Shown here: positions 13,587-38,410 of the stretch, piece by piece
Numbering within the stretch: position 1 is the first letter of the stretch
How the letters are laid out: each line of letters starts with the position of its first letter
Assembly (NCBI GenBank): GCA_004321885.1
Contig: SCQK01000004.1
Span: 1-64,000, forward strand
DNA length: 64,000 bases
Direction: 5' to 3'
Source: Patescibacteria group bacterium
GTDB lineage: Bacteria; Patescibacteriota; Patescibacteriia; Magasanikbacterales; GWA2-37-8
Notes under the pieces: model-generated
Seen by the model: the letters and a program-made list of their open reading frames with translations, nothing else
Database searches by the model: none
Told to the model about the DNA's origin: nothing
Program-made: the position numbers and the translations under genes

Positions 13587-16500
13587 ATGCCCATCAAACG
13601 AGTTCAAAAAGGACGACTAAAACCACCTGTCATTGCGAGACCTGAAAGAGGCCGCCTGCCCGCCTCTGGCGGGAAGCAATCCCCCGCGATTAAGAGAGGG
13701 ATCGCCGCGTCGCCCCGACGTAACGTCAGGGCTCCTCGCAATGACAAAGTGAAACCCGACACGAGCGGCGGTTACAGCGCCAAAAACATCACGGTGCTGG
13801 AAGGCTTGGAGGCCGTGCGCCGGCGGCCCGGCATGTATATCGGTTCCACGGGCACGACGGGCCTGCATCATCTGGTTTGGGAAGTGGTGGACAACTCCAT
13901 TGACGAAGCCATGGCCGGACATTGCGACCAAATTGACATCGCCTTGCTCCCCGGCCACCTGGTGGAAGTGCGCGACAACGGCCGCGGCATTCCGGTTGAC
14001 ATTCACCCCCAGCAAAAAGTCAGCGCCCTGGAAGTGGTACTCACCAAACTGCACGCCGGCGGTAAATTCGGCGACGGCGGCTATAAGGTCTCGGGCGGCC
14101 TCCACGGCGTGGGCGTGTCTGTGGTCAATGCTTTGTCGTCGTACGTAAAAGCCGAAGTGCATCGCGACGGAAAAATTTGGCTGCAAGAATACAAAAACGG
14201 CGGCCAGCCGGTAAAAAAAGTGCGGGCCATTGGCCCGGCCAAAGACACAGGCACGACCATTACTTTTTTACCCGACGCGAGCGTTTTTGAAACATTGGAT
14301 TTTGACTGGAAGACAATCGTGGACCATATCCGCCAACAGGCCTATCTAAACAAGGGCGTGCTTATTTCCGTTTCCGACCGGCGCCAGGGCGAGGAAAAAA
14401 CCAAAGACGGAACGGCTCTCCCTTATCCCAATCCCTCATATCAATTTTATTTTGAAGGCGGCATTGCTTCTTATGTGCGCCACCTGAATCAAAACAAAGA
14501 ACTGAAAAACGAAACTATTTTTTACGTTGATAAAGAGACCGATGGCGTGCGCGTGGAAACCGCTTTGCAATACACCGACGAATACACCGAATCGCTGTTC
14601 GCCTTTACCAACAACATCCACAATCCCGAAGGCGGCACGCATGTGGCTGGTTTTCGCGCGGCTCTCACACGCGGCCTGAACACCTACGCGCGCAACAAAA
14701 ATATCCTGAAAGAAAAAGACGCGAACCTGACCGGCGAGGACGCGCGCGAGGGCTTGAACTGCGTGATTTCGGTAAAGGTGCGCGAGCCCCAGTTTGAAGG
14801 TCAGACTAAAGCCAAACTGGGAAACACCGAGGTCAAGACCGCGGTGGAATCGGTGTTTGGCGACGCGTTTTTAATTTATTTGGAAGAGCACCCGCGGGAC
14901 GCCGAGGCCATCGTGGGCAAGTGTATCTTGGCGTCCAAAGCGCGCAACGCGGCCAAAATTGCGCGCGACGCCATCCTGCGCAAGGGCGCGCTGGAAGGCT
15001 TTACTTTGCCGGGCAAGCTGGCAGATTGCTCCAGCCGTCACGCCGAAGAGAGCGAATTGTTTTTGGTGGAAGGCGACAGTGCCGGTGGCTGTTTTTTTGG
15101 CTCAACTAAGCTAAAATTAGCCGACGGTCGCAGTTTATCTTTCAAAGAATTGGTGGAGGAAAACAAACAAGAAAAGAAAAACTATTGCTATACAATAAAA
15201 GAGGACGGCGATATTGGCATTGAACTGATAAAAAATCCACGAATGACGAAAACAGGCGCGGAAGTGATAAAAGTTATATTAGATAATGACGAGGAAATTA
15301 TTTGTACTCCGGACCACAAGTTTATGTTAAGGAACGGAGAATACAAGGTGGCACAAAATCTGACTCCCTGCGATTCATTAATGCCTCTATATAGGAAAAT
15401 ATCTGAAAAGAGTGGCAGAATCACAATTGAAGGATATGAAATGACCTTTAACCCGAAAGATGCAAGATGGATTTTCACTCATCTACTGGCAGATGATTAT
15501 AATTTACGAAACGGGGTGTACCCCGATGATAGAGGCACCAACAAGCATCATGTTGATTTTAATAAGTTAAATAATAACCCAGATAATATAGTAAGGATGA
15601 CTCACGAAGATCATATGGCTTATCATGCCATGATGCTTCAATTTGGTTTGCACAGAGCGGATGTAAAAGAAAAATCCAAAAAAGCTCACCAATCCGAGGG
15701 GTTTAAAGAAAAAATGAGCAGAATCATGAGTACTCCGGAAATGAAACAAATGTTAAGCCGCAGAGCGAAAAAGCAATGGGAGAACGAGGAATATAAAAAG
15801 TTCATGACGCAAAAATTCTTGGAATTTTACAATTCTAATGAGGAATACAAAAAAAAGAATAATGATTTTCTTAATAAGGCGCAGGAAGAATATTGGGCTG
15901 ACAAAGCCAACAGGAAAAAACAAGCCGAAAGAGTCACTGCGCATTTCAAGGAACATCCCGAAAGAAAAAAATGGCTTAGGGATTTCGCGAAACGGGAATG
16001 GACAGACAAAAATCTGCTTAAATGGCGAGCCGGGAAAACCAAGGAGCAATGGACTGACGAGTTTAGAAGGAAACGAAAAGAAGCATATGACAAGGTCTAC
16101 TTGACCAGCAGTCTGGCTTTCGCCAAAAAGCTTCTTGAATCCAAAGAAGATATGCTGAAAAAATATGACACTGCGCGAATTAATCTTCCGAAAAAAAATA
16201 CCAACCTGTTGAGCTTGAGGACTTTAATTGACAGATTTTTCAACGGCCAAAAACAAAACTTCCTTGAGGCGGTGGCGAATTATAACCATAAAATAATAAG
16301 AATTGAAAAAGTTGCCGAAAAAATGGACGTATATGATATTGAAGTGCCGCACACGCACAACTTTGCATTGGCCAGCGGCGTGTTCGTGCACAATAGCGCA
16401 AAATCCGGACGCGATCGCGAACACCAGGCCATACTCCCCTTGCGCGGCAAGGTGCTGAACGTGGAGCGCGCGCGCTTGGACAAAATCATCGGCAACAACG

Positions 16501-17117
16501 AATTAAAATCGCTGATTATCGCCCTGGGCACGAACATCGGCGAACAATTTGACATCTCCAAATTGCGCTACCACCGCATCGTTATTATGACCGACGCGGA
16601 CGTAGACGGCGCCCACATCCGCACTTTGCTTCTCACTTTTTTCTATCGCCACTTCCAGGACCTGATAACCGGCGGGCACATTTACATCGCCCAGCCGCCT
16701 TTATACAGCGTAAAATACGGCAAAGAAATGAAATACGCTTTTAACGACGAAGAAAAAGAAAAAATCTTGAAAGAATTACAGGGCAAGGGCAAGACGGCCA
16801 AGATTTCCTCCCCTGCCCGAGGGGAGGATGAAGGAGGGGCGGGAACGGAAGCTGAGAGCGGCGAAGAAGAAGCACAGTCATTGGTGGTGGGCGGGGTAAA
16901 GGTGAACATCCAGCGCTACAAAGGTTTAGGTGAAATGAACCCCGAACAGTTGTGGGAAACCACCATGAATCCTGAGAACCGAATAATGAAGCAAGTAACC
17001 GCGGAAAACGCGGAAGCGGCCAACCAAATGTTTGAGGTTTTGATGGGAGACGAGGTGGAGCCGCGCAAAAAATTCATCCAGACCCACGCCAAGCAGGTGC
17101 AGAATTTGGACGTGTAA
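13587..17117 (+). CDS. gyrB: DNA gyrase subunit B, interrupted by an intein
   Basis: Motifs LEGLEAVRRRPGMYIGS, HHLVWEVVDNSIDEA, EGDSAGG / SAKSGRDR flanking the intein, PLRGKVLNVE and QRYKGLGEMNPEQLWETTM. The first 54 codons run through a P-family palindrome, and GTG 13749 gives a normal-length N-terminus (MKPDTSGGYSAKNITVLEGL). The start is therefore uncertain. Confidence 0.95.
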   Translation: MPIKRVQKGRLKPPVIARPERGRLPASGGKQSPAIKRGIAASPRRNVRAPRNDKVKPDTSGGYSAKNITVLEGLEAVRRRPGMYIGSTGTTGLHHLVWEVVDNSIDEAMAGHCDQIDIALLPGHLVEVRDNGRGIPVDIHPQQKVSALEVVLTKLHAGGKFGDGGYKVSGGLHGVGVSVVNALSSYVKAEVHRDGKIWLQEYKNGGQPVKKVRAIGPAKDTGTTITFLPDASVFETLDFDWKTIVDHIRQQAYLNKGVLISVSDRRQGEEKTKDGTALPYPNPSYQFYFEGGIASYVRHLNQNKELKNETIFYVDKETDGVRVETALQYTDEYTESLFAFTNNIHNPEGGTHVAGFRAALTRGLNTYARNKNILKEKDANLTGEDAREGLNCVISVKVREPQFEGQTKAKLGNTEVKTAVESVFGDAFLIYLEEHPRDAEAIVGKCILASKARNAAKIARDAILRKGALEGFTLPGKLADCSSRHAEESELFLVEGDSAGGCFFGSTKLKLADGRSLSFKELVEENKQEKKNYCYTIKEDGDIGIELIKNPRMTKTGAEVIKVILDNDEEIICTPDHKFMLRNGEYKVAQNLTPCDSLMPLYRKISEKSGRITIEGYEMTFNPKDARWIFTHLLADDYNLRNGVYPDDRGTNKHHVDFNKLNNNPDNIVRMTHEDHMAYHAMMLQFGLHRADVKEKSKKAHQSEGFKEKMSRIMSTPEMKQMLSRRAKKQWENEEYKKFMTQKFLEFYNSNEEYKKKNNDFLNKAQEEYWADKANRKKQAERVTAHFKEHPERKKWLRDFAKREWTDKNLLKWRAGKTKEQWTDEFRRKRKEAYDKVYLTSSLAFAKKLLESKEDMLKKYDTARINLPKKNTNLLSLRTLIDRFFNGQKQNFLEAVANYNHKIIRIEKVAEKMDVYDIEVPHTHNFALASGVFVHNSAKSGRDREHQAILPLRGKVLNVERARLDKIIGNNELKSLIIALGTNIGEQFDISKLRYHRIVIMTDADVDGAHIRTLLLTFFYRHFQDLITGGHIYIAQPPLYSVKYGKEMKYAFNDEEKEKILKELQGKGKTAKISSPARGEDEGGAGTEAESGEEEAQSLVVGGVKVNIQRYKGLGEMNPEQLWETTMNPENRIMKQVTAENAEAANQMFEVLMGDEVEPRKKFIQTHAKQVQNLDV
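13629..13745. repeat. P-family palindrome, copy 2 (in gyrB leader or N-terminal extension)
   Basis: GTCATTGCGAG at 13629 and CTCGCAATGAC ending at 13745, with inner GAAGCAATC. Confidence 0.8.
15090..16394 (+). mobile_element. GyrB intein (435 codons) with HNH homing-endonuclease motif and Lys/Glu-rich repeats
   Basis: Inserted between GDSAGG and SAKSGRDR.
- Starts with Cys (CFFGSTKLKLADG).
- Block B TPDH (ICTPDHKFML).
- Ends VFVHN followed by Ser.
- HNH-like HHVDFNKLNNNPDNIVRMTHEDHMAYH.
- Then repeated K/E-rich units (KAHQSEGFKEKMS, RRAKKQWENEEYKKFM, EYKKKNNDFLNKAQEEYW) resembling NUMOD-type DNA-binding repeats.
- Visibly more AT-rich than the exteins. Confidence 0.85.
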
Positions 17118-19840: not shown

Positions 19841-19870
19841 AAAAAAGACAGCCGCAAGGTCGTCTTTTTT
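19841..19870. terminator. bidirectional rho-independent terminator
   Basis: A run, then hairpin GACAGCC-GCAA-GGTCGTC, then T run. It serves the plus-strand anti-sigma gene and the minus-strand tRNA-like gene. Confidence 0.65.
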
Positions 19871-19872
19871 AG

Positions 19873-19946
19873 TGGTGGAGCGAGGGGGAGTTGAACCCCA
19901 AAAGCTAACATGGCAATGGTAGCTGCAGACCGTCTGCGCTCGCCCC
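19873..19946 (-). tRNA. tRNA-like gene with alanine-type acceptor (G3:U70, A73, encoded CCA) and an aberrant anticodon arm
   Basis: Minus-strand sequence: GGGGCGA GC GCAG-ACGGT-CTGC A GCTAC-CATTGCCAT-G(T)TAGC TTTT GGGG-TTCAACT-CCCC C TCGCTCC ACCA. Acceptor, D and T arms fold. The anticodon region gives only a 9-12 nt loop, which contains TGC (Ala) and GCC (Gly) triplets. Confidence 0.5.
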
Positions 19947-19991
19947 TGTTCCACCGAGCAATAGTATATCACAAACGCAAAACGGAGCATA

Positions 19992-20062
19992 TCAAAAGAG
20001 CTCCCTTACGGGAGCTCCGGGGTTCTGTAGACGGTATTCTACAACTAACCTTGCCATGTTAA
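19992..20062 (-). ncRNA. anti-tRNA small RNA 3
   Basis: Minus-strand promoter: TTGACA (plus 20089-20094), 16-nt spacer, TATAGT (plus 20067-20072). AACATGGCAA (plus 20051-20060) is the exact reverse complement of the tRNA-like anticodon region (plus 19907-19916). AGACGGT/ACCGTCT pair between 20029-20035 and 19929-19935. Terminator GGAGCTCCC-GTAA-GGGAGCTC plus TTTTG. Confidence 0.55.
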
Positions 20063-20232
20063 AAACACTATAACATATCCACAAAAATTGTCAATATTTT
20101 ATCCACAAGCTAAACTATTGACTGGGGGTTGACATTTATGTATACTTATGATAAAGTTTTTTGCTCTTTGAGTCACGCCGGAGTGAAATCCGGAGTACGT
20201 TGTTCCACTTCAAACTCGCAGCGGAGGCAGAA

Positions 20233-20655
20233 ATGTATTTGTATCGGAACGAGAACAACGACGCGCCGCGCTACAACCCGTCGTTTCCCGTCTTCACGAA
20301 GGAGATGACGGCCGACCTGTCGCAGGCGAGCGCCACGATGCTCGCCGCGTACTTCAACGACGTCGCGAGCCGGGACGGCGGTGAGAGCTTCGTGTACGAC
20401 CTCGCCGAGCGGCTGGCGGCCGACATGCCGCTCGCGACGCTCCTCGCCGCGGCCCACCTCTGCCGGCTCTCGTCGGCCGAGTTCATCTCGCACATCCTCT
20501 GCGCGTGCGGGAAGAACGGCCGCGCCCTGGAGTGCGCGCGAGCAGTGGCCGAGGCCTCGCTCGCGGTGTTCCGCGAGCACAGCGAAAAACGCCGCGCGCG
20601 GCGGCTGGCTGTGGCGTGCTACACGCACCGGCTCTACCGCGCGGCCCGAGCCTGA
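20233..20655 (+). CDS. hypothetical protein encoded by a strongly GC-rich foreign segment
   Basis: Promoter: TTGACA 20129-20134, 17-nt spacer, TAAAGT 20152-20157. GGAGG at 20223-20227 lies 5 nt before ATG 20233. 140 codons, of which roughly nine in ten end in G or C by manual reading. This singles out this frame among the overlapping ORFs. No recognisable motif. Confidence 0.65.
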   Translation: MYLYRNENNDAPRYNPSFPVFTKEMTADLSQASATMLAAYFNDVASRDGGESFVYDLAERLAADMPLATLLAAAHLCRLSSAEFISHILCACGKNGRALECARAVAEASLAVFREHSEKRRARRLAVACYTHRLYRAARA

Positions 20656-37949: not shown

Positions 37950-38410
37950 TTGTGGTTCATGGTTATAAGCCGAATTTTGTACCCCGACGTTACGTCGGGG
38001 CGATGTTCATTTCTCTGGTCTTGACATTGCTGTCAAAATCTTAGCGAGCGAACTTTTTATCCCGACTAAGTCGGGACTCTGCTCTTGCGCCAGACAGGGC
38101 TTGGCACTCTTCGACGTTGCCGCCGAAGGGAGTATGGTAGCTTTGGTCTCGAGAACCACAACTCCCATACACTTTTCACCTTTGACGAACCCCGACTAAG
38201 TCGGGGTGAACGTCCGCCTGTGGCGGACTCTCATGAATCGCTAGTATTGTCTCTGTGCCGCTTTCCCTACGCCGACGTTGCCGCCGACGTGGCGGGTGTT
38301 ACCCGTTGCCTTTTTCTTTACCGGCTAGTTCCGCTAAGGGCGGACAGACGGAAAGGGCGTTCGGACTTTCCTTCCCGACTAAGTCGGGACGAACATCTGC
38401 CACGAACTGA
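37950..38410 (-). ncRNA. rnpB: RNase P RNA (bacterial type A-like)
   Basis: Minus strand contains GGAAGGAAAGTCCGAACGCC (P4 5' strand), ACAGAGACAA, GGTGAAAAGT and ACAAAATTCGGCTTATAACC (P4 3' strand). P1 pairs GTTCGTGG (plus 38400-38407) with CCATGAAC (plus 37955-37962). Terminator ACAAACGCCCCCTTAACAGGGGCGTTTTTG follows. Ends are approximate. Confidence 0.8.

Follow-up and report, generated by a model that had tools for sequence, protein, structure and literature searches.

A conserved two-gene module of Patescibacteria predicted to couple an alanine-type tRNA-like RNA with a co-varying antisense small RNA

The stretch of DNA analysed here, positions 1–64,000 of contig SCQK01000004.1 (GCA_004321885.1) from a Patescibacteria group bacterium of the order Magasanikbacterales and referred to below as the window, contained three cassettes in which a small RNA (sRNA) gene preceded a tRNA or tRNA-like gene. 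Cassette 3, the main subject of this analysis, was located on the minus strand and spanned approximately 19841–20107, wider than the range of 19873–20094 first given by an initial annotation made from the sequence. In the direction of transcription, it was composed of a DnaA-box-like 9-mer, a promoter (P1), a 67-nt sRNA with its terminator, an extended −10 element (P2), a 5′ leader, a tRNA-like gene, and a second terminator. P1 (20067–20094) was identified by promoter scan and consisted of TTGACA (20094–20089), a 16-nt spacer, and TATAGT (20072–20067), just as initially annotated; it matched 11 of 12 consensus positions and had a TG upstream. P1 carried both −35 and −10 hexamers. P2 (19963–19973) consisted of the extended −10 element TGTGATATACT alone, with TATACT (19968–19963) after TGTGA and no clear −35 hexamer. 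In each of the three window cassettes and in most relatives, exactly 7 nt separated TGnTATAMT from the GGTGGA downstream.

The sRNA of about 67 nt (19994–20060, minus strand; both ends predicted) started with AACAUGGCAA. Its 5′ end, AACAUGGCAAGGUUAGUUG, was antisense to the anticodon loop of the tRNA-like RNA and to the 5′ strand of the adjoining stem, the following hairpin UGUAGA-AUACCG-UCUACA was antisense to the D arm, and the segment GAACCCC was complementary to the T-arm sequence GGGGUUC. The RNA ended in the terminator GGAGCUCCC-GUAA-GGGAGCUC-UUUU (20018–19994), which reads GGAGCTCCC-GTAA-GGGAGCTC plus TTTT in the DNA; the terminator scan placed its hairpin at 20018–19997. A terminated small RNA at this site had been proposed initially and was recovered here. 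Peptide coding by a 21-codon open reading frame (ORF) starting from the AUG in AACAUGG was rejected, since this frame was unconserved and the other sRNAs had no AUG there.

The 5′ leader GGUGGAACA (19947–19955), whose first G was the predicted transcription start, was followed by the 74-nt tRNA-like gene (19873–19946), which was assigned to an alanine-identity type by its sequence, RNAfold, covariation, and a score of 89.5 bits with the covariance model R1. The gene was followed by a trailer, CU plus an intrinsic terminator-like hairpin AAAAAAGACG-ACCUUGCGG-CUGUCUUUUUU (19841–19872), seen in the sequence and in the minimum free energy (MFE) fold of the primary transcript; this second hairpin was absent from the output of the consensus terminator scan. 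The tRNA-like RNA contained an acceptor stem of GGGGCGA and UCGCUCC with a G3·U70 pair, G8, a D arm (GCAG(A)-CGG-(U)CUGC), a 20-nt anticodon-like arm, and a T arm (GGGG-UUCAACU-CCCC) followed by UCGCUCC, A73, and an encoded CCA. The register of the acceptor stem (GGGGCGA/TCGCTCC in the gene), and with it G3·U70, A73, and CCA, was fixed by the position of the T arm. RNAfold gave a cloverleaf of −31.3 kcal/mol, so that the acceptor, D, and T arms described initially were retained, with the acceptor register corrected and GGTGGA assigned to the leader, outside the stem. The anticodon-like loop, A-UUGCCA-U (19910–19917, minus strand), included both UGC and GCC, as the initial annotation had noted; the loop length of 9–12 nt given there was replaced by 8 nt, a trait of the family.

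The cassette 3 gene escaped the standard tRNA finders. ARAGORN made no tRNA or tmRNA (transfer-messenger RNA) call, and the Rfam tRNA model RF00005 gave no match, either at the gathering threshold or at E ≤ 10. Weak Rfam matches were obtained with tmRNA (RF00023; 15.4 bits, for a gathering score of 47) and Tymo_tRNA-like (22.5 bits). Matches to MIR159, Plastid-ycf2, and STnc40 were discarded as artefacts, produced either by terminator hairpins or by the strand antisense to the tRNA-like gene.

In order to find relatives, a signature was built from the features common to the three window cassettes and scanned over one genome per species. The signature matched the window at exactly the three cassettes, with 0 matches in 100 shuffles. 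The scan gave 46 loci, of which approximately half were ordinary tRNA-Ala genes with a chance leader match; the remainder were cassette-type and came from Magasanikbacteria, Komeilibacteria, Paceibacter, Peribacteria, Saccharibacteria, and unclassified metagenome-assembled genomes (MAGs). A second pattern, used for metagenomes with positions 66–76 left free, gave further members, and every cassette-type one ended in U70-C-C-A73-C-C-A. From these, 19 non-redundant loci of the cassette 3 type were assembled, mostly from Patescibacteria MAGs and metagenomes, and all 19 had the promoter, the sRNA, a CUCCC/GGGAG terminator, the extended −10 element, the GGUGG leader, and the tRNA-like gene. The sRNA–tRNA pair of cassette 3, which the initial annotation had proposed to seek in related genomes, was thereby recovered in each of them. 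A twentieth copy (L027:4494–4568), missed by both patterns, was found by covariance model only, and it had its own cognate sRNA (GGUGAUAAUCC against the loop region GGAUUAUCACC). Genomes carried several cassettes at non-syntenic positions, and the nearest relative of cassette 3, locus L017, was in a different gene context. As judged from these sequences, the RNA-only two-gene module is real, conserved, and widespread in Patescibacteria.

The fold of the tRNA-like RNA was examined for covariation in the 19 non-redundant sequences, using 500 shuffles and controls in which the 3′ partners were slid by 1–3 columns. The specified cloverleaf paired 92% of the cells, whereas the slid controls paired 50–57%, and the observed covariation score was reached by none of the 500 shuffles. 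Pairing reached 100% in the acceptor and D stems, where 4 of 7 acceptor pairs and 4 of 4 D-stem pairs showed compensatory changes, and compensatory covariation was present in all four stems. All seven positions of the anticodon stem varied on both sides. Columns 31 and 38 were unpaired in 16 of the 19 sequences, which gave a 6-bp stem and an 8-nt loop with the consensus N-U-U-R-Y-C-A-N, to which the cassette 3 loop conformed. In the cassette 3 copy, an A-U pair could close the loop to 6 nt according to RNAfold. The anticodon arm regarded initially as malformed was instead this conserved and covarying arrangement. G8, the GG of the D loop, and the T loop UUCRAMU were invariant. The D stem was 4–5 bp with a loop of 3–5 nt, and the variable region was 3–4 nt. 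Positions 49 and 65 never paired; the invariant G8 and C65 could pair to give an 8/4 arrangement, neither base varying in the alignment.

The identity elements were as constant as the fold. G1-C72, G2-C71, G3·U70, A73, and CCA, which constitute the alanine identity set, were invariant in 19 of 19 sequences, and G3·U70, A73, and CCA were also present in the members found with the pattern or model that left those positions free. This set, overlooked initially, was the most informative feature of the tRNA-like RNA. Recognition by alanyl-tRNA synthetase (AlaRS) is independent of the anticodon (reviewed in PMC9976931). Because the full AlaRS signature of the acceptor end was present, the tRNA-like RNA is probably charged with alanine by AlaRS whatever its loop reads.

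A functionless origin, in which a decaying tRNA-Ala pseudogene lies beside a chance or mobile-element-derived inverted repeat, might be suggested by the failure of ARAGORN and the Rfam tRNA model to call the gene and by the different gene context of L017. The cloverleaf covaries and the identity elements are invariant, and therefore the arm of cassette 3 represents a conserved design and the gene is no pseudogene. In addition, the sRNA co-varies with its partner, promoters and terminators are conserved in distant lineages, and the signature was absent from shuffled sequence. The pseudogene explanation is effectively ruled out by the covariation and retains scarcely any probability, and the sequence evidence indicates that the tRNA-like RNA of cassette 3 is under selection. 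A mobile-element origin was likewise unsupported: the scan of viral contigs gave no cassette match, and blastn found no match to the cassette in phage and plasmid collections.

The MFE structure predicted for the primary transcript retained the cloverleaf and paired the leader GGUGG with C74-C75-A76-C77-U78. All 21 cassettes had C77 and 20 of the 21 had Y78, and neither search pattern had demanded them. Because of this pairing and the conservation of C77 and Y78, the CCA end is predicted to be sequestered in a leader–trailer helix until processing. An alternative pairing of the leader with positions 70–75, which competes with the acceptor stem, was replaced by this cloverleaf-compatible one.

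The sRNA was closely matched to its own partner. Its 5′ end AACATGGCAA (20060–20051) was the exact complement of TTGCCATGTT in the tRNA-like gene, and a second exact match was formed by ACCGTCT of the sRNA and AGACGGT of the tRNA-like gene, both as described initially. The duplex of the cassette 3 sRNA with its tRNA-like RNA had an energy of −47.2 kcal/mol (z = −6.7 against shuffled sRNAs), which bore out the proposed antisense relation to the anticodon and D regions; non-cognate pairings among the window cassettes gave −17 to −28 kcal/mol. When all 19 × 19 combinations of the cassette 3-type loci were compared, the mean duplex energy was −45.1 kcal/mol for cognate pairs and −25.3 kcal/mol for non-cognate pairs. 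In 16 of 19 rows and in 17 of 19 columns, the cognate partner ranked first, and the exceptions included near-identical loci such as L006 and L059. Absence of the antisense similarity from related loci had been set as grounds for refuting the relation, and since it was present and co-varied in 19 cassettes, the claim survived.

The six loop bases of the tRNA-like RNA were paired in 100% of cognates (19/19) and in 74–100% of non-cognate combinations. The four bases 5′ of the loop were paired in 89–100% of cognates versus 43–57% of non-cognates, and the two bases 3′ of the loop in 78% and 89% of cognates versus about 40% of non-cognates. The sRNA head bound the anticodon 5′ strand and loop with −20.7 kcal/mol in cognate and −8.4 kcal/mol in non-cognate pairs (cognate best in 18 of 19 rows), and the sRNA middle bound the D arm with −14.0 and −9.4 kcal/mol, respectively. 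The sRNA thus co-varies with its partner in sequence, its 5′ end covering the partner's loop. Furthermore, the gain in energy on cofolding over the separately folded RNAs was −13.5 kcal/mol on average for cognate pairs (−9.0 to −20.5), −2.4 kcal/mol for non-cognate pairs, and −14.2 kcal/mol for cassette 3; in these models, only the cognate sRNA is energetically favoured to unfold the cloverleaf. The pairing of the conserved sRNA tail (GAAYYYC) with the invariant T-arm sequence GGGGUUC was modest across the family (−7.9 kcal/mol versus −5.0 in shuffles) and is unproven there, but it was convincing for the cassette 3 copy (−14.3 kcal/mol, with 0 of 300 shuffles as good). RNAalifold on the sRNAs recovered the terminator only, and missed the middle hairpin because indels blur the alignment.

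The complementarity could also be read in the reverse direction, with the sRNA as an effector acting on mRNAs or on the anticodon loops of host tRNAs and the tRNA-like RNA as a stable decoy or sponge. In having a 5′ seed that is single-stranded and a terminator of the Rho-independent kind, the sRNA resembles classic trans-acting sRNAs, and the complementarity alone does not give a direction. The UUGCCA core of the cassette 3 loop presumably resembles the loop of tRNA-Gly(GCC), as in E. coli tRNA-Gly3, and a model for such a sponge exists in the 3′ external transcribed spacer of a tRNA precursor that sponges sRNAs in E. coli. However, the seed varied by cassette and tracked only the loop of its neighbour, so that no common external sRNA target was evident. 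The loops UUACCA and UUAUCA correspond to the anticodons ACC and AUC, which bacteria normally do not use, and the extra loop nucleotide sets the tRNA-like loop apart from real 7-nt loops. Control in this direction would also leave the invariant alanine identity set, the encoded CCA, and the covarying cloverleaf of the decoy unexplained, and we consider it unlikely.

Both units were adjacent and on the same strand, and the anticodon-loop complement, which resembles a specifier, was followed by a terminator. The sRNA might accordingly be the 5′ leader of a read-through transcript, acting in cis in the manner of a T-box, with the mature tRNA-like RNA controlling termination before its own gene; the two halves of such a transcript would pair in cis. 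This arrangement is improbable given that a separate extended −10 element was fixed 7 nt before GGUGG in nearly all cassettes and that no T-box or other riboswitch match was found at E ≤ 10. The body of the sRNA was only about 45 nt and no antiterminator alternative was found in it, and GGUGG, the complement of the tRNA 3′ end, sits downstream of the terminator.

Cassettes 1 (3904–4165) and 2 (7356–7620), both on the plus strand, form a sister subfamily. In each, a consensus promoter preceded a terminated sRNA of about 80 nt, after which came TGnTATAMT, a spacer of exactly 7 nt, GGTGGAC, and a 74-nt tRNA. The tRNA genes, at 4058–4131 and 7514–7587, were called by ARAGORN as tRNA-Arg(GCG) and tRNA-Arg(CCG), respectively. 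They scored 63.9–65.4 bits with the Rfam tRNA model, had the 5-bp stem and 7-nt loop with canonical Arg anticodons, and carried G3·U70, A73, an encoded CCA, and an alanine-type acceptor stem. The ordinary tRNA-Ile and tRNA-Leu genes of the window had no encoded CCA. The covariance model of cassette 3 scored cassettes 1 and 2 at 28.7 and 32.3 bits, and the leader, the G1–G3/U70–A76 ends, the T loop, the promoter layout, and the DnaA-box-like site upstream were common to all three. The initial statement that cassette 3 was unrelated in primary sequence was therefore too strong; the cassettes are divergent members of one family. Its corollary, that simple local duplication does not account for the shared organisation, stood, both cassette types occurring in many other Patescibacteria genomes.

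In 13 cassettes of the cassette 1/2 type, the mean duplex energy was −22.4 kcal/mol for cognate and −13.6 kcal/mol for non-cognate pairs. Their sRNAs, which in cassettes 1 and 2 were antisense copies of the anticodon arm in circularly permuted form, departed from the collinear order of cassette 3, being composed of a segment antisense to positions 26–33, a hairpin whose 3′ strand was antisense to positions 4–12, a segment antisense to positions 33–45, and the terminator. The anti-loop sequence was single-stranded in both sRNA designs. The GCG anticodon occurred in several lineages (cassette 1 of the window, L028, L058, L005, and L079). At L024 (3334–3407) and L066 (106–179), an alanine chassis with CCA and a GGTGGAC leader bore the Cys anticodon GCA.

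Such an RNA might instead be no toxin and serve some non-ribosomal process, for instance the formation of cell-wall cross-bridges, lipid aminoacylation, protein tagging, or ribosome rescue, as its alanine donor or handle, with the sRNA tuning its level. The identity set is invariant while the loop is non-canonical, positions 49 and 65 never pair or are replaced by an 8/4 structure through G8-C65, and the ends resemble the tRNA-like domain of tmRNA, as in the 15.4-bit match above. Non-proteinogenic tRNAs for peptidoglycan synthesis are known in Firmicutes. A pure donor, however, needs no array of loop variants with matched sRNAs, and the sister cassettes bear perfectly canonical Arg anticodon loops. 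Moreover, no Fem/MurM-, MprF-, or SmpB-type gene recurred beside the cassettes at approximately 33 loci. We regard a donor role as improbable.

Several other RNAs were picked up by the searches. In an Acutalibacteraceae MAG, locus L040 (about 250–560, minus strand), and similarly L033, contained the 5′ half of a tRNA-Ala(UGC) and then a complete cassette-type tRNA-Ala with a GGTGGAC leader, with at least three tandem tRNA 3′ halves downstream, each running from an anticodon-loop CAT to CCACCA with spacers of 12–13 nt. An irregular tRNA type with a 7-nt loop of CUAUCAA or similar (AUC), A3-U70, and a CCG 3′ end was picked up by the pattern on the metagenome contigs L054, L063, and L072, and scored 32–37 bits with R1. 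In the Saccharibacteria MAGs L001, L039, L041, and L042, alanine-chassis tRNA-like genes with odd D arms and loops had a conserved upstream element …TAGAGAYAACTATCTTG… in place of the promoter–sRNA module.

The window is part of a Patescibacteria chromosome, encoding GyrB with an intein, NusG, L11, an extracytoplasmic function (ECF) sigma factor with a DUF5667 protein, QueA, and YceG, as well as secreted proteins with LamG domains, DUF3800 proteins, and a type IV secretion system (T4SS) pilin. Cassette 3 was located between the DUF5667 gene and a divergent 140-aa ORF, initially described as foreign and at most putatively so, which had no match in Pfam, NCBIfam, or PADLOC. The start codon of this ORF (ATG at 20233) was 138 nt from the −35 hexamer of P1, and the distance of about 35 bp initially reported applies only to the promoter-like hexamers of the ORF, at 25–35 bp. 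Orthology could not be established by synteny: the DUF5667 neighbour matched only itself in a set of 5.8 billion proteins, and the only other contig was the same sequence. All-against-all comparison of the ORFs around approximately 33 cassettes gave no common protein family, and the neighbours were housekeeping genes, with products such as PNPase, S1, glycosyltransferases, TrmB, a DHH phosphoesterase, ClpP, and LamG proteins. A BRO-N protein beside cassette 1 (4358–5227, minus strand) matched the PADLOC candidate PDC-S13 with E = 2e-112, and a BRO-N/PDC-S13 homolog adjoined the L061 cassette (L061 3695–4135, plus strand). These neighbours hint weakly that some copies, cassette 3 excluded, lie in a defence island.

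The DnaA-box consensus is TTATCCACA. The 9-mer TGTGGATAA of cassette 3 (20099–20107, minus strand), the reverse complement of this consensus and so identical to it, was placed 13 nt before the −35 hexamer begins, and a second box-like 9-mer, TGTGGATAT (20075–20083), was contained in the P1 spacer. Perfect copies of TGTGGATAA occurred only three times in the 64-kb window, at cassette 1, at cassette 3, and upstream of gyrB. Of 30 cassettes, 16 had a box with at most one mismatch, in either orientation, at 13–17 nt before the −35 hexamer, for a background of 0.39 per kb, and nearly all related cassettes had a TTGACA-type −35 hexamer. We infer from these sequences that DnaA may bind the putative box upstream of P1.

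The third perfect copy (13376–13384, plus strand) fell within the 260 bp that separate gyrB from the divergent gene upstream. Both GC skew and gene orientation change sign in this region, which may therefore be the replication origin.

The best explanation of these observations, held tentatively and at a little less than an even chance, is that the module consists of a mis-decoding, AlaRS-chargeable tRNA gated by its antisense RNA. The tRNA-shaped product of the second gene would be charged with alanine and, in the ribosome, would mis-decode or shift the frame, for example at GGC or GGCA. The first gene would be driven by the stronger promoter behind the DnaA-box-like site and would supply an sRNA whose single-stranded 5′ end is the exact complement of the loop. 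The sRNA would nucleate on the loop, zip along the anticodon stem on its 5′ strand, and continue through the D arm, converting the cloverleaf into a long heteroduplex. As a result, the tRNA-like RNA would be excluded from translation and probably exposed to double-strand-specific RNases. The outcome would be an RNA–RNA toxin–antitoxin system or a gated-mistranslation switch, in which loss of the sRNA releases a stable, alanine-charged, mis-decoding tRNA. The Arg anticodons GCG and CCG on the alanine chassis of cassettes 1 and 2 favour this explanation. In this genome, the main Arg codon is CGC (25.5 per 1000) and the main Gly codon is GGC (44.6 per 1000). An unrestrained copy would plausibly be harmful, because these are the main codons and because the induction of allo-tRNAs arrests growth in E. 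coli. A narrower form of the mis-decoding explanation, in which the module is a true toxin–antitoxin or abortive-infection switch with a tRNA as the toxin and an sRNA promoter wired to DnaA, appears doubtful. In that form, replication or transcription stress, or a phage, would stop the sRNA, the stable tRNA would corrupt translation across the proteome, and loop variants with matched sRNAs would constitute mutually orthogonal copies.

Several points weigh against the gated mis-decoding tRNA. All functional claims on the module, namely separate transcription, charging, ribosomal activity or toxicity, the direction of control, and the role of DnaA, we infer from sequence. The 8-nt loop may not decode at all, and the unpaired 49:65 might weaken binding to EF-Tu and thereby point to a non-ribosomal role. 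Since the complementarity gives no direction of control, the tRNA-like RNA could equally sponge the sRNA. The cassette 1-type genes at L024 and L066 had no recognisable upstream sRNA. The defence or toxin–antitoxin context is weak, a PDC-S13 candidate adjoining cassette 1 and the L061 cassette, and the neighbours of cassette 3 were housekeeping genes. Finally, some allo-tRNA-like species are charged yet unused in translation (PMC5389517).

Among known RNAs, the allo-tRNAs (Mukai et al., Nucleic Acids Res 2017, PMC5389517) come closest to the module. In these RNAs, identity is uncoupled from diverse anticodons, among which UAU, GCG, and GUC predominate; they insert Ser or Ala in E. coli, some with G3·U70 inserting Ala, and they arrest growth when induced (PMC5389517). 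They were found in Acidobacteria, Clostridia, and Proteobacteria, often near toxin–antitoxin genes, and were suggested to be possible regulatory RNAs (PMC5389517). The uncoupling of identity and anticodon, the G3·U70 of some members, the long D stem with a small loop, and the 6-bp anticodon stem are shared with the module, and the 12-bp acceptor branch of allo-tRNAs, 8/4 or 9/3, has a possible counterpart in the 8/4 arrangement through G8-C65. In contrast, allo-tRNAs have a long variable arm and mostly serine identity, whereas the RNAs described here have a variable region of 3–4 nt and uniform alanine identity. The module differs further in the 8-nt loop of the cassette 3 type, the encoded CCA and GGUGG leader, the co-varying sRNA gene, and the Patescibacteria hosts. 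A term search of PMC5389517 and a literature search gave no description of an antisense partner for allo-tRNAs.

In the features common to canonical tRNAs, the cassette 3 type had the 7-bp acceptor stem, the D-loop GG, and the UUCRANY T loop. It lacked the 5-bp anticodon stem and 7-nt loop (Y32-U33-NNN-R37-N38), and an alanine anticodon (NGC) in a standard loop was absent, the loops of its relatives being UUACCA, UUAUCA, UUGUCA, UUGCUA, UUGUUA, and UCGUCA. Enlarged loops that can decode are known (PMC7609411); the frameshift suppressors SufB2 and SufJ and the yeast mitochondrial tRNA-Thr(UAG) are reported to have 8-nt loops, with which tRNAs can still function on ribosomes (PMC7803779, PMC4238358). 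The loop of the module resembles these in keeping U33-like and A37-like positions. Those tRNAs, however, are point or reassigned variants with matching identity, whereas here the enlarged loop is a family trait on an alanine chassis and its decoding is predicted. The tmRNA shares the GGGGC… 5′ end, G3·U70, the GGGGUUCAACUCCCC T arm, and the UCCACCA 3′ end. It differs in being about 300–400 nt, whereas the 74-nt RNA had full D and anticodon arms and no mRNA-like domain, tag reading frame, or pseudoknots.

The T-box riboswitch also uses a single-stranded RNA segment that pairs with an anticodon loop and a second element, here GGUGG, that complements the tRNA 3′ end. The module, unlike a T-box, had no T-box sequence, Stem I platform, antiterminator, or Rfam match (E ≤ 10). 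In addition, its pairing reaches well past the anticodon, so far that the tRNA would be unfolded, and the downstream gene encodes a tRNA-like RNA rather than an aminoacyl-tRNA synthetase or amino-acid gene. Assignment to canonical tRNA, tmRNA, or T-box was rejected, each failing a defining feature.

Toxin–antitoxin systems with RNA antitoxins include type I and the type VIII RNA–RNA pairs SdsR/RyeA and CreT/CreA, in the latter of which CreT sequesters tRNA-Arg; such modules occur in multiple copies at non-syntenic positions, sometimes in defence islands. By analogy, the module is small and compact, with an antisense RNA directed against a potentially harmful neighbouring transcript and predicted to be strongly transcribed, P1 having −35 and −10 hexamers and P2 an extended −10 alone, and an adjacent RNA specifically complementary to the partner transcript was present family-wide. 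It would differ in that the would-be toxin is itself a tRNA with predicted toxicity, and in that the antisense RNA is encoded in trans, on the same strand without overlap. Neither Rfam 15 nor the full-text literature, to which access was incomplete, was found to describe a tRNA-like gene that has a co-varying antisense sRNA gene of its own, and we therefore rate the module as a new kind of RNA–RNA system, its function being deduced from sequence.

Some further features of the window were observed. The GyrB gene (13587–17117, plus strand) had its intein between the GyrB domain and the Toprim domain. An RNase P RNA class A match (37950–38408, minus strand; 131.8 bits) was 459 nt for a model of 367 positions, which implies sizeable insertions. 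The DUF3800 proteins encoded at 749–1324 and 10158–10814 weakly matched DUF3800_VII, and a DUF3800-II RNA motif (61251–61314, plus strand; 67 bits) was about 20 nt from an opposite-strand ORF of 180 aa (61336–61878). Repeats around cassettes 1 and 2 (3871–3898, 4177–4204, 4338–4365, 5194–5221, and 7633–7660) corresponded to gene 5′ ends, that is, the ribosome-binding site, ATG, and start of a signal peptide read on the minus strand. Two neighbouring genes had in common a near-identical repeat of 96 nt (9894–9989 and 10753–10848). The repetition of gene 5′ ends and of this stretch suggests recombination or gene conversion among the genes for LamG proteins.

The members with Arg anticodons are now annotated as ordinary tRNA-Arg, which would mislead inference of the genetic code or of the tRNA sets of these genomes. 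Even if the proposed mechanism is wrong, the module is a well-defined covarying pair of structured RNAs missed by tRNA finders and Rfam. If the mechanism is true, it would give a function to natural tRNAs with mismatched identity and anticodon, such as allo-tRNAs, and synthetic biology would gain ready-made orthogonal pairs of tRNA and anti-tRNA, from which suppressor or quadruplet-decoding tRNAs that can be switched might be derived. The cell would deliberately keep mis-decoding, alanine-accepting tRNAs under antisense control, a new way to regulate or weaponise translational fidelity, and the poorly understood Patescibacteria would possess, in these cassettes, genetic modules of a new, RNA-only class.

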